Shown here piece by piece: positions 1,358-55,321 of a stretch of 64,000 nt of DNA. This stretch comes from Candidatus Parcubacteria bacterium (GTDB lineage Bacteria; Patescibacteriota; Saccharimonadia; Saccharimonadales; 2-12-FULL-41-12), in the NCBI GenBank assembly GCA_019347895.1, contig JAHWKM010000003.1, forward strand, positions 771 to 64,770. Direction: 5' to 3'. Below the pieces are notes generated by a model. It did no database searches and was not told where the DNA came from. It saw only the letters and a list, made by a program, of their open reading frames with translations. Every line of letters begins with the position of its first letter. The first letter of the stretch is position 1. A program made the translations under genes and the position numbers.

Positions 1358-1405
1358 ATGAAAAGGCCCCGCACAAAGCGAGAAAGCGAGGCTTTTTCAT
1401 TGGAG
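1353..1405 (-). terminator. palindromic (bidirectional) terminator hairpin joining tRNA-Lys CCA to the satellite element
   Basis: CTCCAATGAAAA / TTTTCATTGGAG 12-bp outer inverted repeat encloses the GC stem GCCTCGC...GCGGGGC. U-tracts on both strands. Confidence 0.5.
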
Positions 1406-1477
1406 GGCCAGCGGGGACTCGAACCCCGGACACCCTGCTTAAGAGGCAGGTGCTCTAACCAGCTGAGCTACTGGCCC
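1401..1477 (-). tRNA. tRNA-Lys (anticodon CTT), CCA encoded
   Basis: Reverse complement GGGCCAGTAGCTCAGCTGGTTAGAGCACCTGCCTCTTAAGCAGGGTGTCCGGGGTTCGAGTCCCCGCTGGCCCTCCA folds as a cloverleaf. Anticodon loop is CTCTTAA. Confidence 0.9.
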
Positions 1478-1810: not shown

Positions 1811-1938
1811 ACCTAAAAATTATCATACGGAGAAAGTATAACCACAAACTTTTTAGCAGGTTACCCCTGTTATGACAACGGTTTTTCTGAAATAAGTTGT
1901 CAATGTAAGTATGTTAAGCACAATGATAAAATTGAGTT

Positions 1939-2412
1939 ATGCATTCGGGGAAGCAGAAGCTGCGAAAAAAGCTGTTACTACGCCGGCAACTAATGGATGC
2001 TCAAGAAGTGGCAGCCAAAAGTAATAATATTACCCATACACTGATCGACAGCGTGGATTGGCGGTCAGTAAAATTCCTGCACATCTATACTCCACTCAGG
2101 AAATGGAACGAGATAGATACTGGTCTAATCAAGGCTACTGCAGCGCAGCGCTGGCCGCATATTGAAATTGTTTCGCCGGCTCCGGATAAAAACCAACCGT
2201 TCCCCGTCGAAAAATTTGACCTGATTATTGTGCCAGTTTTAGGGTTTGACAAGGATAAATATCGTCTAGGCTACGGCGGCGGCTGGTACGACCGTTTCTT
2301 GGCAGGCCAAAAACAGGCCCGAACTATCGGCTTGGCCTATAAGGACGCGCTCATAGAAAACTTGCCGCGCGAAAGCCACGATATTTCTCTGACTACTATA
2401 CTGACAGATTAA
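1939..2412 (+). CDS. 5-formyltetrahydrofolate cyclo-ligase
   Basis: C-terminal LIIVPVLGFDKDKYRLGYGGGWYDRFL signature of the 5-FCL family. Confidence 0.75.
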   Translation: MHSGKQKLRKKLLLRRQLMDAQEVAAKSNNITHTLIDSVDWRSVKFLHIYTPLRKWNEIDTGLIKATAAQRWPHIEIVSPAPDKNQPFPVEKFDLIIVPVLGFDKDKYRLGYGGGWYDRFLAGQKQARTIGLAYKDALIENLPRESHDISLTTILTD

Positions 2413-2475
2413 TATTATTAGTTACTTATATATTAATATTAATAATCTTTTGCTAACATTACCCTATGGGGCTCC

Positions 2476-3267
2476 ATGTTGCGGGGGCTCCATGTTGCGA
2501 TCTCTACGTCCGCTGTAGAAAGCGATCCTTTTAATGAGTCTGCTTTAGAAGCTTTTAATTCTATTGGCTGCAACCAGTCAGTTGTCCCTTATACTTTAGT
2601 ACCTGAAAGCGTAGAAATGCTCGAAGCTGCCGATAGTGTAACTGTTCTGGGAACGCCGCTTCACTATTCCAAAAAAACCGCCGAACTTCTCAGGCCATAT
2701 TTTGAACCTTTAAAAAACGCGAATATAAAACGCTGGCTGGGTATCTGTGCCGGTATGCAAGTAATGGGCCTATTATATGGAGCTGAAATGAAGCGGGGCG
2801 AAGAAGTAGAAATAGGGCGTTCTATTGTCAAAGCCGTTGACGGGCAAGAAACAGATCTGCTGTTATCCGGCTTGGGGAAATACTTTTTTATAAACAATCT
2901 ACATACGGCGTCTCTTGATATAAATGATGCGCCCGATGTGGTTCATGTTGCTAGCTCCTTGAAAACACCTGGAGTTACCGAAACTGGCTGCGAAGTCCAG
3001 ATTATGAGAGTCCTCGGAAAAAACAATTGGTACGGCATACAAGGACATCCAGAAAAAGGTTTTGATGGTCTTAAAATTCTCCGCAACTTTTTAGATTTGC
3101 CGCAGCCGGAGTATGTTGATTCTGATAACGCCTTTAATAATCATGAATATAGAACCAGGCAAAACAGGTCTGGATTATGGGTAGTTAATGGTCAAGATTC
3201 CTCTCCGCCTCACCCATCAATGCACCTACCTTCTGACCAAAGTATTAGAGAGTTGTTAGCCGCCTAA
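2476..3267 (+). CDS. class I glutamine amidotransferase-like protein
   Basis: Nucleophile elbow LGICAGMQVM and GIQGHPEK His-Glu motif. Sits between folate genes. Confidence 0.55.
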   Translation: MLRGLHVAISTSAVESDPFNESALEAFNSIGCNQSVVPYTLVPESVEMLEAADSVTVLGTPLHYSKKTAELLRPYFEPLKNANIKRWLGICAGMQVMGLLYGAEMKRGEEVEIGRSIVKAVDGQETDLLLSGLGKYFFINNLHTASLDINDAPDVVHVASSLKTPGVTETGCEVQIMRVLGKNNWYGIQGHPEKGFDGLKILRNFLDLPQPEYVDSDNAFNNHEYRTRQNRSGLWVVNGQDSSPPHPSMHLPSDQSIRELLAA

Positions 3268-4503
3268 CGATTTCAGGGTTTTTCGAAGCTTTGATGCAAG
3301 GTACAGCGAGCCCGTAATAAGTACTTTTGATTCGACCGATTTAAGCCCTTTTTTAAGTGCTTCTTCCGGATTGGGCGCCACTATGCAGTGGCTATTTTCA
3401 AAATATTCAGCGATGTAGGCTGGTTCAAGCGACTTTTGGTGATGATCTTGCTTAGTGTCAAATGAAGTTATAATGACCCGGCTGGCGATTTTTTGAACCA
3501 GCCTGGTCATCTGCAACAAATGGGGTTTTTTATTTTTGCCGACGGCTAAAATAACGCAAACTTTCTCCTCTCCAAGTTCTTGTTTTAAGCTGTCAATAAG
3601 AGCCTGCATTTTTTGGGTGTTATGAGCGCCGTCTAAAATAAGTTCTTTATCCTCAAATTTATATCTTTCAATTCTCCCGGGAATAGTTAATTTTAAAGTT
3701 TTTTCCAGGCTATCTGTTGGCAAAGGTTTTTTATTTTCAAGGTTAAAAATATGCTCGGCTACTTTATTTGCCAGCGTAAAATTGCGTTTTTGCAACATTG
3801 GCAGATCAATATTTTTATCGATTTGTCGATTTACTATCAAGTCAGCTTTTTTGGACTTTGCCTCAGACTTAATGATATCAATAATTTTACCGGCCTGATC
3901 GTTTGCGAATACGGTATTGCCCGGCTGCAATATGCCTGCTTTTTGCATTGTTATTTTCTGGATTGTGCTACCTAAAATATCGGTATGGTCAAGCCCTATA
4001 TCGGTTATTACGCATATTTTGTTTACACCGGCGACAATATTGGTAGCATCTAACTTCCCGCCCAGGCCTGTCTCAATAACCGCGTAGTCAACCTTAATTT
4101 TAGCGAAATACCAAAAAGCAAAAGCCGTGAATAATTCAAAATATGTCAGCTTAATACTTAACCTGTTAAGTATACTTAAGAAGTTAGAAAACTCTTTACA
4201 AAATAATGCTTCTTCAAGCGGTTTTAAGTCTATCTGTATCCGCTCATTAACTTGGTCAATATGCGGGGAGATACTCAGCCCGGTCTTAAGGCCATTTTGC
4301 CTGAGCAGCTCGGCAATATAATAACTAGTCGAGGTTTTGCCGCTGGTACCAGCTACGTGAATAACCTTGATTTTATCCTGGGGATCTCCCAGCCGGTTCA
4401 TCAAATTCTTAATTCTATCCAGGCTATAGCTGTCTTTATCGGGCAATTCCATAATGCTGCGCGGTAAAACAGTCTTCAGATCATCAAATGTGTTAATCCT
4501 CAT
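3256..4503 (-). CDS. folC: folylpolyglutamate synthase / dihydrofolate synthase
   Basis: Mur-ligase P-loop VIHVAGTSGKTSTSYY and overall FolC-like sequence. Start moved to MRINTF (4503) because the longer ORF overlaps the tRNA at 4513..4589. Confidence 0.8.
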   Translation of the reverse strand: MRINTFDDLKTVLPRSIMELPDKDSYSLDRIKNLMNRLGDPQDKIKVIHVAGTSGKTSTSYYIAELLRQNGLKTGLSISPHIDQVNERIQIDLKPLEEALFCKEFSNFLSILNRLSIKLTYFELFTAFAFWYFAKIKVDYAVIETGLGGKLDATNIVAGVNKICVITDIGLDHTDILGSTIQKITMQKAGILQPGNTVFANDQAGKIIDIIKSEAKSKKADLIVNRQIDKNIDLPMLQKRNFTLANKVAEHIFNLENKKPLPTDSLEKTLKLTIPGRIERYKFEDKELILDGAHNTQKMQALIDSLKQELGEEKVCVILAVGKNKKPHLLQMTRLVQKIASRVIITSFDTKQDHHQKSLEPAYIAEYFENSHCIVAPNPEEALKKGLKSVESKVLITGSLYLASKLRKTLKSLGG

Positions 4504-4589: not shown

Positions 4590-4690
4590 ATAATTAACAT
4601 TATAAGCCATATGTTCGAATCCTTGGCTTGACCTACCCGTCGTTTTCATAAATGAAAACGCGGTCAGGCCCAGTCTGTTAGCCCATAATC
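4590..4690 (-). other. degenerate class-1-like remnant plus TATAAT promoter directly upstream of tRNA-Arg(UCG)
   Basis: Minus strand reads ACTGGGCCTGACCGCG-[TTTTCAT TT ATGAAAA]-CGACGGGTAGGTC-AAGCCAAGGATTCGAACATATGGCTT-ATAATGTTAATTA. It resembles the GGGCCTGC..GGTAGGTCGAATCC end of the Arg class-1 element. Confidence 0.3.
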
Positions 4691-11818: not shown

Positions 11819-11974
11819 GCCCCGGTAGCTCAGCTGGATAGAGCAGGAGACTTCTAAGCTCAAGGTCGTAGGTGAGAAATGCCTTGAATGGCATTTCGCA
11901 AGGTCGGAGCGCGACGGCGCGAGACATGCCGAAAAGAATTTTTAGCAGAAAATTACTTTTGGGCGAATCCTATC
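11819..11974 (+). ncRNA. tRNA-Arg(UCU)-like sequence interrupted in the T-loop by a ~90-nt class-2 module (pseudo-tRNA or novel tRNA-scaffold RNA)
   Basis: GCCCCGGTAGCTCAGCTGGATAGAGCAGGAGACTTCTAAGCTCAAGGTCGTAGGT|GAGAAATGCCTTGAATGGCATTTCGCAAGGTCGGAGCGCGACGGCGCGAGACATGCCGAAAAGAATTTTTAGCAGAAAATTACTTTTGGG|CGAATCCTATC. T-stem GTAGG/CCTAT pairs. There is no acceptor 3' strand and the anticodon stem is weak. Confidence 0.5.
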
Positions 11975-12002
11975 TTAAACCTTACAATATAAACCGGTAC
12001 CT

Positions 12003-12079
12003 GCCCCGGTAGCTCAGTGGATTAGAGCAAGACGGTTCTAACGTCAAGGTCGGGGGTTCGAATCCCTCCCGGGGTACCA
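12003..12079 (+). tRNA. tRNA-Arg (anticodon TCT), CCA encoded
   Basis: GCCCCGGTAGCTCAGTGGATTAGAGCAAGACGGTTCTAACGTCAAGGTCGGGGGTTCGAATCCCTCCCGGGGTACCA. TACAAT -10 lies at 11983-11988. Confidence 0.9.
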
Positions 12080-12117
12080 ATATAAAAGCTGGTCCTTGTG
12101 ACCGGTTTTTATATTGG
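12077..12117 (+). terminator. palindromic terminator hairpin after tRNA-Arg(UCU)
   Basis: CCAATATAAAA-GCTGGTC-CTTGT-GACCGGT-TTTTATATTGG. Confidence 0.5.
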
Positions 12118-12264
12118 ATATCTCGGGGAATCAAACCACCGACCAAAAGGTCGGGGTGAAAAATGCCTGTGGCATTTTGCAAGGAAACCTACTCTTCAAA
12201 ACTTGTTTTGAGAGACGTAGTTTCGGGCCTGCCGAAGGTAGGTCGAATCCCTCCCGGGGTACCA
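12115..12264 (+). ncRNA. class-1 tRNA-satellite element (Arg-UCU type), ends in CCA
   Basis: TGGATATCTCGGGGAATCAAACCACCGACC-AAAA-GGTCGGGGT|GAAAAATGCCTGTGGCATTTTGCAAGGAAACC...AGTTTCGGGCCTGCCGAAGGTAGG|TCGAATCCCTCCCGGGGTACCA. Confidence 0.5.
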
Positions 12265-12266
12265 AC

Positions 12267-12295
12267 TTGACAACTACTTAGCCTTATGCTATTAT
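12267..12295 (+). promoter_or_regulatory. strong sigma70-type promoter (TTGACA-17-TATTAT)
   Basis: TTGACA at 12267-12272, 17-nt spacer, TATTAT at 12290-12295. The predicted TSS coincides with the ATG at 12302. Confidence 0.6.
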
Positions 12296-12301
12296 GTAGT
12301 T

Positions 12302-12443
12302 ATGTTTGAACGAAAAGAAGATACGCATCTGCCCCTTTCTTGATCTTGAACCAAAAGTAGATACACCACCGCCCCCTCCTCTCCCGGAAAAAGAAGACAC
12401 GCCACCTTCAACACCTGGTACGCCTGAAGGAGTGTGGCTTTAG
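12302..12443 (+). pseudogene. leaderless proline-rich small ORF with tandem 33-39 nt repeats, broken by a 1-nt frame change in a C-run
   Basis: The ATG frame gives MFERKEDTHLPLS*. The shifted frame continues LDLEPKVDTPPPPPLPEKEDTPPSTPGTPEGVWL*. The repeat peptide E-x-K-x-D-T-P-P appears in both frames. Removing one C at ~12331-12334 yields one 50-aa ORF. Confidence 0.3.
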
Positions 12444-12448
12444 CCACG

Positions 12449-12469
12449 CGATATCCTACCCGGGTACCA
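12449..12469 (+). other. isolated tRNA-Arg-like 3' fragment (T-loop to CCA)
   Basis: CGATATCCTACCCGGGTACCA versus the genuine CGAATCCCTCCCGGGGTACCA. Preceded by hairpin GTGTGGC-TTTA-GCCACGC. Confidence 0.4.
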
Positions 12470-12574
12470 AATGATTACCTAGACTGCGCGTATTTGATAC
12501 TAATCCCTATCCTACCTTTGCCCATGAATAGCGAGATTTGTTACTGAATTTAAGGTTAGTTTTTATATAATTGC

Positions 12575-17046: not shown

Positions 17047-18081
17047 TTATTCTATAAATTTGTTAGTGTAGAGCGCGTCGAAATTGACAGTGTCAACCGG
17101 TTTGCCGCTAACGTCTAAAACCGCGTCATTGTCCAGCATGAACTGCGGGTAATTCCGCCAATAACTTTTTTCCTGGATTCCCCAGGTCTTGCCGGGTTTT
17201 TGATATTTGCCGCTCAAATACTCCTGGCTGGCATAAACCAAGCCCTCGTCATCAAAAGTACCTTCAGACGCTTCAGCTATTAAAATCCGGGCGGCTTCGT
17301 CTGGATTGTTGCGGGCGAATTCATAGCCGCGAACGGTTGCTTTCATAAAGCGTTTCAACAAATCCTCTTTTTTGGAAATAGTGTCAGGCGAACTGATAAT
17401 GTTTGGCGTGTAATAGTCCGGTATGCCGTGTTCTATGACGGGAAATGTATCTATGGCAAAACCGCTTCTCTCGGCTTGGATTTTTTCCCAGCCGTCAAAA
17501 ATCCAAACAAAATCTACCTTGCCGGATTCCAGCGCTTGAAGCGGCGCAGTAGAAACTGTTACATTTTTGAAATTGCCTTCGCCGCCGTCGTTTTTTATAG
17601 CGGCCTTCATGACCGGTTCCTCATAGGGCATACCGTAACCGCCGTAGATTTTGCCGTCCAGCTGGTCTAGCGAAGTTATGTTATCGCTTTTCCTGGTAGC
17701 GATGGATGAGGTGTTGGTGGTGATTATAGCCGCGATTGACGTCACCTGCGAATCACTGGCCGCGTTGGCTACCACCCCTTCCGTGAAACCAATACCCGTA
17801 TCGGCCTTGCCGGCGGATACTAAAGCATCAGAAGAAGCACTGGTGGAGTACGGCAAAAGCTTTAGCTCGACTCCTTCTTCTGCGTAATAACCTTGGTTTT
17901 TAGCCACATAAAGCCCGCTGTGGTTGGTATTCGGCGTCCAATCAAGCGCCAGCGTCACTTCCTCTAGCGGCTTTTTTGCTGTCTGTTCTTTATCATTATT
18001 AACATTCTTGGCTATTAAAAAAGCGCTTAGCCCAGCCACCAAGACCAGCGCGGCAATCGCAATTAATTTTATATTCTTCAC
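17047..18081 (-). CDS. NMT1/THI5-like substrate-binding protein (ThiY-like, HMP/thiamine precursor uptake)
   Basis: N-terminal anchor, then LALDWTPNTNHSGLYVAKNQGYYAEEG, typical of the NMT1/THI5 SBP family. First gene after the TPP riboswitch. Confidence 0.75.
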   Translation of the reverse strand: MKNIKLIAIAALVLVAGLSAFLIAKNVNNDKEQTAKKPLEEVTLALDWTPNTNHSGLYVAKNQGYYAEEGVELKLLPYSTSASSDALVSAGKADTGIGFTEGVVANAASDSQVTSIAAIITTNTSSIATRKSDNITSLDQLDGKIYGGYGMPYEEPVMKAAIKNDGGEGNFKNVTVSTAPLQALESGKVDFVWIFDGWEKIQAERSGFAIDTFPVIEHGIPDYYTPNIISSPDTISKKEDLLKRFMKATVRGYEFARNNPDEAARILIAEASEGTFDDEGLVYASQEYLSGKYQKPGKTWGIQEKSYWRNYPQFMLDNDAVLDVSGKPVDTVNFDALYTNKFIE

Positions 18082-18087
18082 GTTAAT

Positions 18088-18178
18088 TCTCCCTTCGACG
18101 GCATTACCCGTACAGGTTCATTGGGTTTATCCAGGTGTCAGCTGGAATTTCTCAGCCCGGCTATCCCGAGCTCCCCAT
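18088..18178 (-). promoter_or_regulatory. TPP (THI-box) riboswitch
   Basis: Minus strand reads GGGGAGCTCGGGATAGCCGGGCTGAGAAATTCCAGCTGACACCTGGATAAACCCAATGAACCTGTACGGGTAATGCCGTCGAAGGGAG. It contains the CTGAGA, ACCC..TGAACCTG and GGTAATGCC..GAAGGGA cores. TATAAT lies at 18197-18202 (minus). Confidence 0.8.
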
Positions 18179-18207
18179 TTATATTTGGTAACGATAATTA
18201 TAACAAC

Positions 18208-27830: not shown

Positions 27831-27976
27831 TGGTCGGGGTGAGAGGACTTGCCCACGTTCCGCGGGCCCGAAACTTCATCTTTGAAAACAAGTTTTCAAG
27901 AGAAGATTTCCTTGCGACCCGCCCTGGCGGGTCTCACCTCCGACCTTTTTAGCGTCGGAGATTCAAATCTCGACCA
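27831..27976 (-). ncRNA. class-1 tRNA-satellite element (Pro-UGG type), ends in CCA
   Basis: Minus strand reads TGGTCGAGATTTGAATCTCCGACGCT-AAAA-AGGTCGGAGGT|GAGACCCGCCAGGGCGGGTCGCAAGGAAATC...AGTTTCGGGCCCGCGGAACGTGGG|CAAGTCCTCTCACCCCGACCA. Confidence 0.5.
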
Positions 27977-28009: not shown

Positions 28010-28086
28010 TGGTCGGGGTGAGAGGACTTGAACCTCCGACCTTGCGGTCCCAAACCGCACGCGCTAGCCAACTGCGCCACACCCCG
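28010..28086 (-). tRNA. tRNA-Pro (anticodon TGG), CCA encoded
   Basis: Reverse complement CGGGGTGTGGCGCAGTTGGCTAGCGCGTGCGGTTTGGGACCGCAAGGTCGGAGGTTCAAGTCCTCTCACCCCGACCA. TACAAT -10 lies ~16 nt upstream. Confidence 0.9.
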
Positions 28087-28218
28087 ATAAACAAGTTTTA
28101 TTGTAAAGGTTCTAGCCAGGACTTGGTCACCTCCGGCCGCGACATCAAAACTTAAAATACCTAACAGGGGTAATTCTACCATGAATTATTTGAGGCGAGA
28201 AGACTTGCGCTAATCGAT

Positions 28219-51997: not shown

Positions 51998-52316
51998 AGT
52001 GCCTGCACTTACATACCCCGTTTAGTACGAATAGTATACTATACACTATATTAGTACTTTTAGCACGTTCTTGTTAGTTTTAAGCTCATACTTATAGCAT
52101 ACTAAGGGAAATACTGCGGGGGCGAGGTATTATTGGCAGCAGCTTACCAATATCCGATATACAAAGACGGGCTCAATTGCTATTCCTAGATGTGTTGCAC
52201 TACCTAGTGACTAGGTGCTTGTGGACGACCTACTCGTCGAATAGCAGCAATACAGACCCCACTAGCAAGGGTTATATTGAGGTGGCCATTCCTAGATTGT
52301 TTACAGGTACTAATAA

Positions 52317-53405
52317 CTAAGTGTTAGCAGGTAATTCAACAGGTGGTCGCAAGTGGCTACGGTCATAGCGCGGTTCAGCATCCGTAAGGCCAGCGCCGCC
52401 GCTAGCAAAGAAATTAGCAATGGCTATTTCGCCTGCAATAGCAGCAGCCTCGCGCTTATAAAAACGCCTTTCCCTGAAGTGAGATGAGCGTGCAAGTACC
52501 CTATAACCATCCATCACTGTCTGTTGAGGAGCACCATAATCATCAAGGTCATATACAGCAGCTTTAAGTAGCTCTTTTTCAGGCCCCTTAACTTTATCTT
52601 TCTGAGGTAAAATTCTTAATATTCCCGACTGAGCCTCTACAATGTGTTTAGCTAATTCATCAACCTCGGCTGTATGGCGGCTTGGCTCGCCTTGCGCCAT
52701 AACACTTTTGAGACGTGTTTTTAGTAAGTCACTAGCAGCCTTAAAAGTTACCACTGCATTATCTGGTTCACCTTTACGTTCATAGGCAGCCCCTAGCTCA
52801 ATTGCGCCCACACCTGCGGCGTGAAGATCACCACGTTCACCAAGGGAATTTACAGCGGTAGTCCATGCGCTTACTTCATTCCCTTCAATAGCTTCGCGAC
52901 CTTTTTGAGCTATGCTTTCTAAATCTTGCTTATCGTCATAAGGATTATCAAATGCTGCTTGCATAGCAAGATGCATTTGTCTCAGACTACCCTTTAACGC
53001 ATCCATGGCAACATCACGCTCAGTTTCATCACCTTGCGGTATGCGTTTCGGCTGCTCAAGTGGGTCTTTCATGCTCATAGCTCTCACCACACAGCCCTGG
53101 TTATACATAAAAGCTCCGCCACGCCATGGTATATCAAGCGCCATCCTAGCTGATATGACCGCCTCGGCTGACTTTTCATCGACAAGTGAACGGGCGGCAT
53201 CAATTCTTGGCTCCTGAAATGCCTTACGCCCAGCATCATATTCTCGGACCCATTGTTCCTCTGCCCTAGGATTATGGTTAATCTCAACGTGTGCGATGTG
53301 AGGAGTGGCACCCTTGCCGGTCAGCCAATGACCTGGATTGCCCCGCTCAATCCAGCTTTCTACATTTAATGGTGGTCCAAAATATGGTGACGGCTCGGCT
53401 GCCAT
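52317..53405 (-). CDS. hypothetical protein
   Basis: 362-aa ORF with no motif assignable by eye. Confidence 0.45.
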   Translation of the reverse strand: MAAEPSPYFGPPLNVESWIERGNPGHWLTGKGATPHIAHVEINHNPRAEEQWVREYDAGRKAFQEPRIDAARSLVDEKSAEAVISARMALDIPWRGGAFMYNQGCVVRAMSMKDPLEQPKRIPQGDETERDVAMDALKGSLRQMHLAMQAAFDNPYDDKQDLESIAQKGREAIEGNEVSAWTTAVNSLGERGDLHAAGVGAIELGAAYERKGEPDNAVVTFKAASDLLKTRLKSVMAQGEPSRHTAEVDELAKHIVEAQSGILRILPQKDKVKGPEKELLKAAVYDLDDYGAPQQTVMDGYRVLARSSHFRERRFYKREAAAIAGEIAIANFFASGGAGLTDAEPRYDRSHLRPPVELPANT

Positions 53406-53590
53406 AATAACTCCTAGTTAGTTGTCATTACTGTAAAACTTAGTTTTACTACAAGCAAGCATGAGCAAAATTAAAACGACGTTATCTAGCATATCTAAAG
53501 TCGGAGTTGAGGATGATAATGATTCCTAGTAACACTTATACACTTGTTAAACAAATACCATTAAGAAGTTAGTGCTCGAGGTGTTTTCAT

Positions 53591-53881
53591 TGGAGGGTCC
53601 GGTGGGACTCGGCCACATCCTGCGGTCACTTTTCGCGACCCCGCTAGTTACATACTTTGAACGAGTTCAAAATCTGAAACGTAGCCTTACAAAAAGTCCC
53701 CAACTTTTCTCAACTGGAACTTTCATACTTACAGCATGCTGAAAATCTGAAAGGTTCCCTTGAGAACGTCCACTGGACGTTCTCACCCCCGACACCCTTT
53801 TGGCGTGCCGTGTTTTCAAATCTCACCAGTGAGATTCTCCAAACAAAAAACCCAGCTCTAAGCTGAGTTCTTTGTTTGGAG
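53591..53881 (-). ncRNA. class-1 tRNA-satellite element, long variant (Lys type) with duplicated middle module, ends in CCA
   Basis: Minus strand reads ...CGGCACGCC-AAAA-GGGTGTCGGGGGT|GAGAACGTCCAGTGGACGTTCTCAAGGGAACC-TTTCAGATTTTCAGCATGCTGTAAGTATGAAAG...GTTTCAGATTTTGAACTCGTTCAAAGTATG...GACCGCAGGATGTGGC|CGAGTCCCACCGGACCCTCCA. Confidence 0.45.
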
Positions 53882-54114
53882 TGTCCGGTGGGACTCGCCT
53901 CGCAAGAAAAAGAAAAAATACTTTTTCTAATGCGACCCCAAAGGCCTCTGGCCTTTCTGGGGCAAGGGGCCGGGTGAGAACTGCCCGGTGGCAGTTCGCA
54001 GAGCCGGAAGCGCGACGGCGCGCTGAGGCGGGCTCGCGAAATCCGCCAGCAGGCGGATATTTGTGAGTTGCCGAGTAGGCAATCCCGTTCGAGTCCCAAC
54101 GGAAACATCCTCCA
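53877..54114 (+). ncRNA. class-2-like tRNA-satellite element on the plus strand, ends in T-arm-like hairpin and CCA
   Basis: TGGAGTGTCCGGTGGGACTCG (antisense Lys 3' end)...CCCCAAAGGCC-TCT-GGCCTTTCTGGGG...GGGT|GAGAACTGCCCGGTGGCAGTTCGCAGAGCCGGAAGCGCGACGGCGCGCT...CCGTTCGAGTCCCAACGGAAACATCCTCCA. Palindromic hairpins flank it at 53837-53881 and 54110-54151. Confidence 0.35.
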
Positions 54115-54210: not shown

Positions 54211-54732
54211 CTAGGGGTTGACTTTGTAAACCAGTCTGACCCGTCCCAAGCTAAGTTGCTTCACACTGAGCAGCGCCATACCGAACTCAAAATTATCAAA
54301 AGCTAAAAATGGTCTACCTTTACCAATAATATAGGGTGTTACCGTAAGTTGAACTTGATTGACGAGCTTTCGTTTCGCAAAAGATGAATTGAGTATTCCA
54401 CCACCAATAAGGAACAGTGTTTTAACGCCAACCTTTTCCAAAAACTCAATGGCTTCTTCTGGACTATGCACGAGAGTGTAGCCTTTTGGTGTTTGAGAAT
54501 CATTGTTGCGAGTGACAATGAGCTTGTGGTCTACCTGCACATTATCAAAGTTCTCGTTCTCATATTTTTCAGTGACTTGTTCGTATGTTTCACGACCCAT
54601 AACGATATTGTTGTGCTCTTTTGCTTCCGCAACAAAGTCGTCCCAGCCGTCACTTGGCAACCAGTCTTCATCACCATTCTCACGAGCAATAAAGCCGTTT
54701 GGCGAAATAACCATATCCAAAATTACTTTCAT
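54211..54732 (-). CDS. dihydrofolate reductase-like protein (RibD C-terminal domain family)
   Basis: MKVILDMVISPNGFIA...NIVMGRETYE...LFLIGGGILNSSF pattern. Start at 54732 preferred over 54795. Confidence 0.7.
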   Translation of the reverse strand: MKVILDMVISPNGFIARENGDEDWLPSDGWDDFVAEAKEHNNIVMGRETYEQVTEKYENENFDNVQVDHKLIVTRNNDSQTPKGYTLVHSPEEAIEFLEKVGVKTLFLIGGGILNSSFAKRKLVNQVQLTVTPYIIGKGRPFLAFDNFEFGMALLSVKQLSLGRVRLVYKVNP

Positions 54733-54809
54733 GTGTGTATCATAACAAAAAGAGCCATTGCTGACTCTTAGTTCAGACTTTCCCGCTAGGGTCATCTGTA
54801 AGGTCGAAT

Positions 54810-54976
54810 TGGAGGGTCCGGTGGGACTCGGCCTACCTCCGGCAGGCCCGGAAGTTCACTATTGCAAGCACAGCTTGCATCGGAACGTTCCCTTACGACA
54901 TGCCACTGGCATGTCTCACCCCGACACCCTTTTGGCGTGTCGCAGATTCGAGAACCACAAAACATTAATCCTCCAT
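54810..54976 (-). ncRNA. class-1 tRNA-satellite element (Lys-UUU type), ends in CCA
   Basis: Minus strand reads ATGGAGGATTAATGTTTTGTGGTTCTCGAATCTGCGACACGCC-AAAA-GGGTGTCGGGGT|GAGACATGCCAGTGGCATGTCGTAAGGGAACG...TGCAAGC-TGT-GCTTGCA...CGGGCCTGCCGGAGGTAGGC|CGAGTCCCACCGGACCCTCCA. Confidence 0.5.
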
Positions 54977-55011
54977 AGCTCCGCAAAAAGCGGAGCGACG
55001 GAGAATGGAGG
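54970..55011 (-). terminator. palindromic terminator hairpin after tRNA-Lys(UUU)
   Basis: Minus strand reads CCTCCAT-TCTCCGTC-GCTCCGC-TTTTT-GCGGAGC-T-ATGGAGG. Confidence 0.5.
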
Positions 55012-55082
55012 GTCCGGTGGGACTCGAACCCACGACACCCTGCTTAAAAGGCAGGTGCTCTAACCGGCTGAGCTACGGACCC
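55006..55082 (-). tRNA. tRNA-Lys (anticodon TTT), CCA encoded
   Basis: Reverse complement GGGTCCGTAGCTCAGCCGGTTAGAGCACCTGCCTTTTAAGCAGGGTGTCGTGGGTTCGAGTCCCACCGGACCCTCCA. Confidence 0.9.
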
Positions 55083-55089
55083 TTGTTTA

Positions 55090-55321
55090 ATATTGTAAAT
55101 GATCACGGGTAAATCCACGACCCAAAGATAATTTTCTGGTGAAAATTTCTTTCGGCATGCCTCGCTCCGTCGCGCTCCGGCCTTGCGAACTGCCATCAGG
55201 CAGTTCTCACCCTGCTTAAAAGGCAGGTGCTCCCATGTCATCCGACATGGCCGTATCGTATGATACGGTAACCGGCTGACCTGTCCGCCGAAGCCTTGGC
55301 GTAGGCGGGAGCTACGGACCC
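55090..55321 (-). ncRNA. hairpin-decorated tRNA-Lys(UUU)-like RNA: three perfect hairpins inserted in the D-arm plus a class-2 module after the anticodon arm
   Basis: Minus strand reads GGGTCCGTAGCT[CCCGCCTACGCCAAGGCTTCGGCGGACAGGT]CAGCCGGTTA[CCGTATCATACGATACGGCCATGTCGGATGACATGG]GAGCACCTGCCTTTTAAGCAGGGT|GAGAACTGCCTGATGGCAGTTCGCAAGGCCGGAGCGCGACGGAGCGAGGCATGCCGAAAGAAATTTTCACCAGAAAATTATCTTTGGG|TCGTGGATTTACCCGTGATC. The non-inserted 47 nt are identical to the 5' 47 nt of the adjacent tRNA-Lys. Confidence 0.5.

Follow-up and report, generated by a model that had tools for sequence, protein, structure and literature searches.

In 64,000 nucleotides (nt) of contig JAHWKM010000003.1 from Candidatus Parcubacteria bacterium, a member of the Saccharimonadales (hereafter the window), partial tRNA genes lie beside intact tRNA genes, and their T-loops are interrupted by a structured insert of about 85 nt. 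The genomes of Saccharibacteria are tiny and streamlined; nonetheless, most tRNA genes of the window are layered with displaced tRNA pieces and a structured module, the term used here for the insert together with its tRNA-derived surroundings. The insert, of about 85-90 nt, is one member of a large family of structured elements that is specific to Saccharibacteria. We read the modules as junction pieces of small, mostly non-autonomous integrative elements residing in tRNA genes, with a probability of roughly one half for this reading. The element is widespread and new to the databases and literature searched; its genomic logic resembles that of islands that target the T-loop, and its structured core is without known counterpart.

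Seven tRNA genes were identified in the window with ARAGORN and Rfam, and a downstream module was found at four of them: tRNA-Lys(CUU) (1401-1477, minus strand), tRNA-Arg(UCU) (12003-12079, plus), tRNA-Pro(UGG) (28010-28086, minus) and tRNA-Lys(UUU) (55006-55082, minus), the last having two copies. An earlier note on this DNA, made from the sequence alone, had listed five copies of this type (class 1), and all five were recovered in place by a covariance model (R1, E-values rough), the canonical four at 88.9-110.3 bits and the fifth at 51 bits. The copy 3' of tRNA-Arg(UCU) spans 12115-12264 (plus; R1 match 12149-12253, 107.9 bits; RNA fold z = -5.4), with T54 at 12157, the insert at 12158-12242 and the displaced tRNA 3' end at 12243-12264. 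Between tRNA and module lies a palindromic, terminator-like hairpin (12080-12114, plus) whose arms extend until CCA pairs with TGG. On the minus strand, the copies 3' of tRNA-Lys(CUU), tRNA-Pro(UGG) and tRNA-Lys(UUU) (copy a) occupy 1202-1357 (R1 match 1212-1319, 88.9 bits), 27831-27976 (27841-27944, 110.3 bits) and 54810-54976 (54821-54926, 99.3 bits). The fifth, copy b at 53591-53881 (minus; R1 matches 53691-53793, 51 bits, and 53624-53687, 24.5 bits), is rearranged, with hairpins 2 and 3 duplicated internally, and terminates in a copy of the tRNA-Lys(UUU) 3' end.

The layout of these copies, here termed Type A, begins with the intact tRNA, followed by an A-rich spacer, a hairpin and a mirrored spacer that runs to TGG. 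The remaining parts stand in the order proposed earlier. A degenerate antisense T-arm and a short A-rich loop come first; the variable loop and the 5' strand of the T-stem follow in sense orientation as far as GGT, and after them the insert and what is left of the T-loop through to CCA. The antisense segment was thus correctly recognized, and the TGG once attached to it is instead the end of a palindrome, CCA-spacer-hairpin-spacer'-TGG, built around the terminator-like hairpin. The 3' end of each module matches the adjacent isoacceptor, as had been observed: over the last 20 nt there are no mismatches for Arg, Pro and Lys-UUU and two for Lys-CUU, and the match stops at CCA. In the Lys(CUU) module, T-stem pair 49-65 is G-C where the tRNA has C-G. 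An 18-nt core, GGGCCYGCNGRANGTRGG, occurs exactly four times in the window and once more with three mismatches; allowing up to three mismatches, eight matches were obtained against 2.0 expected, a number reached in none of 100 shuffles.

A comparative set was assembled by searching metagenome-assembled genomes (MAGs), one genome per species, with a 24-nt pattern taken from hairpin 3. This yielded at least 117 loci (cited below by L numbers), almost all from Saccharibacteria/Saccharimonadales MAGs, and 113 distinct sequences from the matches listed were aligned. Homologues thus exist outside the assembly, the module being present in more than 110 Saccharibacteria MAG loci. A few MAGs with other phylum labels may be mis-binned; module contigs in MAGs named Nevskiaceae, Acidobacteriota and Limnocylindria (L002, L029, L057) are probably Saccharibacteria contigs of this kind. 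Two loci, L001 and the viral L119, match the pattern by chance within coding sequence. The restriction of such satellites to Lys, Arg and Pro tRNAs holds within the window and fails elsewhere, where at least 18 anticodons, His and Gly included, are accompanied by a module.

At least 46 clean cases of Type A, with 18 anticodons, were found in other genomes, the core lying 128-156 nt past the tRNA end. In a second arrangement, Type B, the module lies upstream of the intact tRNA and consists of a promoter, the 5' two-thirds of the tRNA up to GGT, the insert, a few T-loop and T-stem nucleotides, the antisense of these nucleotides and, last, a new -10 box. Three such Type B units, each of 190 bp, stand in tandem in L046. 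The inserted DNA starts with a replacement tRNA 3' part and the palindromic terminator in the downstream arrangement; in the upstream one its final portion is a new promoter with a replacement for the tRNA 5' part. The insertion point lies directly after a loop GGT, usually at T54 of the T-loop and sometimes in the D-loop (L041, L084) or the variable loop (window 55121-55208). Inserts were also found in hairpins unrelated to tRNA, and L091 is a stand-alone version with a stem and a terminator. Tandem arrays are present in L046, L096, L100 and at tRNA-Lys(UUU) of the window.

The consensus fold of the 113 sequences is a four-way junction in which a closing helix, usually the T-stem (three pairs), is joined by hairpin 1, a long hairpin 2, and hairpin 3 with a GAA or GGA triloop. 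Cells at paired positions are paired in 96.7% of cases, compensatory changes on both sides were found in 25 of 36 pairs, and doubly changed cells numbered 729 against 220 in shuffles. The covariation score was 0.505, compared with 0.174 for shuffled alignments and 0.07-0.11 for slid partners. Although hairpin 3 is partly fixed by the search pattern, pairing is retained without exception at the positions left free (Y/R, N/N). In the stems outside the pattern G.U (110) exceeds A.C (32), which identifies the tRNA-sense strand as the strand that folds. The antisense segment departs from a perfect complement mainly by changes that preserve G.U pairing on the sense strand (62 G>A and 19 T>C, compared with 32 C>T and 5 A>G), and a second count showed this trend as well. 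The selection on structure proposed from the stems of the window copies is hence borne out across the family. The GCAA described as a tetraloop is probably none, as U9-A39 and G10-C38 lengthen hairpin 1. It cannot be claimed that hairpin 3 is a duplex recombinase half-site: the search pattern lies there, the variants GTCGC/GTGAC and CTCGC/GYGAG covary, and the sequence is not conserved.

An insertion can be followed at the IMPase-tRNA-Arg(UCU) locus, which was compared between the window, L121 and L122 (L122 at 94% protein identity). The intact tRNA-Arg of L122, with T-stem GTAGG/CCTAC, equals window positions 11819-11873 joined to 12449-12469; in the window, this L122-type allele is split exactly after T54 by about 575 bp. 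Its displaced 5' part (11819-11873, plus) ends at T54 and matches the L122 tRNA, and its displaced 3' end, CGATATCCTACCCGGGTACCA (12449-12469, plus), carries the CCTAC that pairs with GTAGG at 11868-11872. The first part of the intervening DNA consists of an insert of a related class (1b, described below), a new promoter and a different, L121-like tRNA-Arg allele, so that the intact gene at 12003-12079 (plus) is an allele other than the split one; the second part is made up of the palindromic hairpin, the class 1 module together with its copy of the 3' end, and finally a strong promoter. In L121 there is an upstream module only, and in L122 only a downstream one, of yet another class. The relatives thus present one site in empty and occupied form, with the boundary inside the tRNA gene, as is characteristic of an island. 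Directly after the CCA of the module, a near-consensus promoter (TTGACA-17-TATTAT with TG; 12267-12295, plus) points away from the module, and 12296-12448 holds a 13-codon open reading frame (ORF) followed by an antisense-T-arm-like stretch, before the older tRNA-Arg 3' fragment.

The same geometry recurs across loci. Copies of the tRNA 3' end (last 20 nt) were found 71 times downstream of tRNAs, across 164 tRNAs, and all start at T-loop position 55/56; none of the 71 is part of an uninterrupted T-arm copy. At three of the four window tRNAs the far-end direct repeat is identical in 20 of 20 positions, and likewise at no fewer than 46 further loci. The intact gene and the fragment have the form of a regenerated target and of the displaced direct repeat that marks the far end of an island. 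What the earlier note called a tRNA-derived 3' third is not a derived copy forming part of an RNA scaffold; the simplest view is that a tRNA gene was split by insertion and that this piece is its own 3' end, displaced. The CCA-spacer-hairpin-spacer'-TGG palindrome is absent at tRNAs without a module, which indicates that the hairpin belongs to the inserted DNA. A native terminator as fold-back point was also considered and is weakened by the lack of such a hairpin at those tRNAs.

Relatedness among the inserts does not follow the tRNA. Copies are usually no closer within a genome than between genomes (0.737 vs 0.701), and overall identities are near saturation, so the argument against vertical inheritance depends on those pairs that are closest. 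When the 30 most similar pairs from different genomes are taken, the tRNA is the same in only two, and one pair with 93% identity is found at Lys-UUU and Met-CAU; vertical inheritance at each tRNA is ruled out by these pairs. Three same-genome insert pairs are 94-99% identical with different flanks, and flanks always match the local tRNA.

Some units carry protein genes. The cargo between tRNA and module is a RibD_C/DHFR-like gene in the window (54211-54795, minus; 194 aa), which lies between two tRNA-Lys 3' end copies, and HEPN, ASCH, GNAT or HAD genes elsewhere. In L035, positions 1891-3555 encode a 555-aa large serine recombinase (Resolvase, Recombinase and Zn_ribbon_recom domains) that adjoins the regenerated tRNA on the opposite strand. 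Homologues are present in L003, L006 and L073, with a similar arrangement in L006 and L073, and in all four loci the C-terminal 30 or so residues (...GMEGFEPPNAWTKTRCLTTWPHP...) are encoded antisense across the regenerated tRNA gene.

Of the four readings offered in the earlier note, that of a miniature element targeting T54/C56 is favoured by the start of all 71 copies at position 55/56, the comparison with L122 and the tRNA mismatch of the closest pairs. The modules mark sites at which a tRNA gene was split by insertion, mostly after T54, and the inserted DNA supplies the replacement part, so that an intact tRNA persists. The displaced native piece stays fused to the insert and provides its closing helix and, downstream, a CCA end. 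In the scheme that we propose, the units would be mobilized in trans by large serine recombinases specific for the T-loop, of the kind present in larger islands that end in a module, and arrays would build up beside tRNA genes with the newest unit nearest the tRNA. The module itself would be the cis-acting junction piece needed for persistence or movement of the element, and it is probably transcribed as RNA.

A number of observations weigh against this scheme. A large serine recombinase was found in only four of the 117 listed loci, and none is present in the window as far as it is annotated. No promoter was found for the downstream module, which is moreover preceded by a terminator-like hairpin, leaving transcription of this type no more than putative. 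The att sites of serine recombinases are short duplexes and leave the RNA-like covariation of three hairpins unexplained, and the antisense T-arm segment has no role in the scheme. As insert relatedness is decoupled from tRNA identity, the element would often have to re-acquire a tRNA-specific replacement part; this decoupling fits mobility of the insert alone, combined with partial inversion-type duplication, at least as well. Stand-alone copies closed by stems other than those of tRNA are also known (L091, L003, L037, L009). Finally, the search pattern lies inside hairpin 3, and the set is for this reason biased to that variant.

The alternative that ranks next, although we consider it somewhat unlikely, is that only the 85-nt insert is mobile, as a MITE-like (miniature inverted-repeat transposable element) unit or a loop invader at the DNA or RNA level that lands after GGT in hairpin loops. 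Each tRNA gene being essential and present in a single copy, an insertion would survive only where a local duplication had occurred and one of the two copies was struck, and the sense-antisense-sense layout would be the trimmed remains of a duplication of the tandem-inversion type. Such an origin is consistent with the constant boundaries (GGT|GAGA ... GG|(T)CGA) in T-, D- and variable loops as well as in hairpins unrelated to tRNA, with near-identical inserts in different flanks of one genome, with insert relatedness being independent of tRNA identity, and with T-loops that are uninterrupted in the antisense copies. The palindrome running through the spacer to CCA/TGG and the L046 repeat, which takes in flanking promoter or terminator sequence, point the same way. 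On the other side, the intact tRNA-Arg of the window is an allele other than the split one and must then have arrived with the inserted DNA rather than by local duplication; in L122 the spacer and hairpin after the tRNA are not repeated after the displaced 3' end; uninterrupted partial duplications number 0 of 71; and no candidate transposase is known.

It is less probable again that the module represents a novel type of mobile element in which the RNA itself is active, either a guide-like or a small ribozyme-like RNA. As a guide, the scaffold of about 85 nt with some 21 nt of flank sequence, a layout similar to that of an omega-RNA, would direct a trans-encoded enzyme to T-loops. As a ribozyme, the RNA would insert itself after GGU in hairpin loops and then be copied back to DNA. 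Either way, a spare tRNA gene would have to arise with each spread.

A cellular role for the module as a non-coding RNA of the host, which would borrow tRNA promoters, T-stems and CCA ends, the insertion scars being secondary, is in our view unlikely. The strong covariation and the G.U bias of one strand would be expected of such an RNA, as would the stand-alone version with its own closing stem and terminator (L091), the position of upstream copies directly behind a tRNA promoter, and the many copies per genome in core chromosomal regions. Its presence at a given tRNA is, however, patchy between relatives, several unrelated insert classes occupy one position, and no conserved neighbour gene was found among the 117 listed loci; copies within a genome are just 61-74% identical, which is odd for a multi-copy housekeeping RNA.

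Folding of single-stranded DNA, rather than RNA, would account for the strand specificity, and we regard as improbable the corresponding proposal that the functional form is a recombination site similar to attC or the CTX attP, or a single-strand origin. The antisense T-arm would then pair with the split sense T-arm and so imitate the tRNA target as a duplex from which the three hairpins bulge. In the downstream and upstream arrangements alike, the antisense strand forms uninterrupted pairing with the two halves on either side of the insert; GAA and GGA triloops with a C-G closing pair are very stable in DNA; and a downstream type with a terminator upstream and no promoter speaks against RNA. 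No integron-type integrase, signature of Xer exploitation or Rep gene was, however, seen in the 117 listed loci, G.T wobbles in short stems are weak in DNA (L035 has three in 9 bp), and the CUUG-type loops and conserved junction nucleotides are RNA-like.

An intron-like insert, excised from tRNA precursors or enabling the assembly of split tRNAs in trans, is very improbable. Its 5' boundary follows U and its 3' boundary follows G, and one full-length tRNA-Gly(GCC) with an insert exists (L112). A simple intron had already been disfavoured, and in-silico removal of the insert gave a tRNA recognized by ARAGORN in only one of 128 cases, the other 127 yielding none. An intact tRNA with the same anticodon adjoins nearly every copy, T55 is absent in many copies so that excision would leave a T-loop of 6 nt, and 85-90 nt with three simple hairpins fall short of a group I core (P3-P9, about 200 nt or more) and match no Rfam intron. 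The gene in L112 (2730-2834, minus) has matching acceptor strands, the insert in its T-loop and a D-loop that has lost its GG; no intact tRNA-Gly(GCC) lies within this 8-kb locus. Decoys for nucleases and a sense/antisense switch, the two other functions once suggested, have no direct support.

Modules of other classes accompany those of class 1. Class 1b, which shares hairpin 1 and GCAAGG with class 1 and differs in its 3' half (YCGGAGCG..GCGAG.CATGCC..TTTGGG), is represented by two upstream modules in the window and a third copy in L121. In the module at tRNA-Arg(UCU) (11874-11988, plus; R1 23.3 bits), the insert is followed by CGAATCC, which is what remains of the T-loop, by TATCTTAAACC in antisense and by TTACAAT, a new -10 box that serves the intact tRNA. 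That at tRNA-Lys(UUU) (55091-55321, minus; R1 21.4 bits) comprises a tRNA 5' part into whose D-loop region additional hairpins have been inserted, the insert at 55121-55208, which lies in the variable loop behind its GGT, and TTTACAAT, a new promoter. Class 2 is a GC-rich (about 0.7) module of multiple hairpins (53877-54112, minus; fold -116 kcal/mol, z = -7.4), closed by TGGAG and an antisense T-arm that pair with the tRNA-Lys 3' end copy at 53877-53896; a class 2-like module lies 3' of tRNA-Val in L011. In still other insert classes (L022 around 2040, L016, L038, L059, L046, L114), a stem-loop resembling hairpin 3, such as GGGGTCGCGGAACGTGACC or GGGCTCGCCAAAGGTGAG, stands directly 5' of the displaced tRNA 3' end, and the parts upstream are unlike.

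Remnants with the signature of an upstream module were observed before tRNA-Arg-UCG (4590-4669, minus; ...GGTAGG|TCAAGCC AAGGATTCGAAC ..TTATAAT) and before tRNA-Pro (28087-28206, minus; ...GGTGACC|AAGTCC TGGCTAGAACC TTTACAAT), and both tRNAs have probably been hit by insertion too. Just upstream of tRNA-Lys-CUU (1478-1597, minus), a tandem duplication of about 35 nt, TGCAATGATGGGCCAGCCCGGCTGTCTTGCAGACA, contains a copy of the first 7 nt of the tRNA, split by a hairpin. An independent short contig (L118, SRR15827330) equals window positions 52038-53914 and ends exactly at the tRNA-Lys 3'-end repeat, which suggests that such repeats may break assemblies. A look-up of exact proteins for polymorphism among close strains returned no record for two proteins and only the identical contig for one.

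Known families did not account for the module. Searched against Rfam 15 at the gathering score, the whole window gave only tRNAs and one thiamine pyrophosphate (TPP) riboswitch; nothing meaningful was obtained for 11950-12500 at E ≤ 10, and 14 further loci gave tRNA only. The riboswitch (18071-18187, minus; 56 bits) is just over the gathering score and lies upstream of an NMT1/THI5-like gene (17047-18081). A pattern scan of IMG/VR returned one match, by chance in a coding region of high GC, BLAST against phage and plasmid collections returned none, and the module is not described in the literature searched; the statement that it corresponds to no described RNA class or mobile element therefore stands for these sources. 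When the 689 ORFs of the 117 listed loci were clustered for a conserved neighbour protein, the serine recombinase (4 loci) was the only recombinase family. Minimal units are without an ORF, and no integrase lies beside the window copies; the annotated ORFs of the window, which include no transposase or recombinase, are housekeeping genes such as those for Mur ligases, SHMT, RecA, RuvB and type IV pili.

If the modules do mark integrative mini-elements, these would constitute a major and so far unrecognized way in which gene cassettes are gained and tRNA alleles replaced in the candidate phyla radiation, and would leave a record of successive insertions comparable to tree rings. They would also be a source of error in tRNA annotation and in MAG assembly, where contigs break at the repeats. 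Were the module to guide or catalyse insertion, it would represent a new programmable tRNA-targeting system. The module is in any case a new family of RNA (or folded DNA), with more than 100 members and unusually clean covariation.

The comparison with known systems begins with transposable elements. A MITE of the DDE type is not a match, as the ends (GAGA... / ...GTRGG) are not inverted repeats, there is no short target duplication, and T55 is often missing. Miniatures of IS200/IS605 and the omega-RNAs of TnpB share insertion 3' of a short motif, the lack of a target duplication, and terminal hairpins. The module is similar to omega-RNAs in being a structured scaffold followed by about 21 nt of flank-derived sequence; it differs in that no TnpA or TnpB cluster was found among the 689 ORFs, its end hairpins 1 and 3 are unlike each other, its 3' flank is paired, and the IS605 and HEARO families of Rfam gave no match. 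In integron attC sites and the attP(+) of CTX phages, structure is conserved over sequence, one specific strand folds, and cassette-like arrays are formed with one site at each cassette end. The module resembles them in its conserved structure, strand specificity and arrays, and is unlike them in its tRNA-loop target, its three-hairpin junction with conserved sequences, and its RNA-like loops and wobbles; neither a GTTRRRY core nor an integrase or other IntI/Xer signature was seen.

In Patescibacteria, the reported tRNA introns are of group I and lie in the anticodon loop (PMC13011429). These, like the non-canonical introns of archaea, interrupt a tRNA loop as the module does, whereas the module sits in truncated fragments beside an intact gene and cannot be excised to give a tRNA. 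In the tRNA and tmRNA islands catalogued with Islander/TIGER, the target gene is split and regenerated by the island, and a displaced fragment marks the island end (PMC4383910). Islands of this kind, with those of the T-loop sublocation class among them, are like the module units in carrying cargo between the regenerated gene and the displaced fragment; they usually have tyrosine integrases and are kilobases long, and they are not known to have a structured module in a partial T-arm copy.

The closest precedent is the ssrA islands of Dehalococcoides, which are T-loop-specific and have a large serine recombinase of the DsiB/CcrB family (PMC3146451). The module differs from them in targeting at least 18 tRNAs, and in that most units are about 190 bp long with no protein gene. 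In place of a 15-bp motif, a heavily covarying four-way-junction element of about 90 nt adjoins the repeat; the units include an antisense T-arm copy and a palindromic terminator, and upstream versions with a 5' part exist. A recombinase beside the regenerated gene, as in these islands, is found in L035, and similarly in L006 and L073, and is absent from most module loci; in L035 as in Dehalococcoides, it is a serine recombinase of about 540-560 aa on the reverse strand, the likeness being one of size and arrangement. Shared with the modules in general are a far boundary at which about 20 bp of the 3' end recur as a direct repeat, a conserved motif that immediately precedes this repeat, tandem arrays, and members without an integrase of their own.

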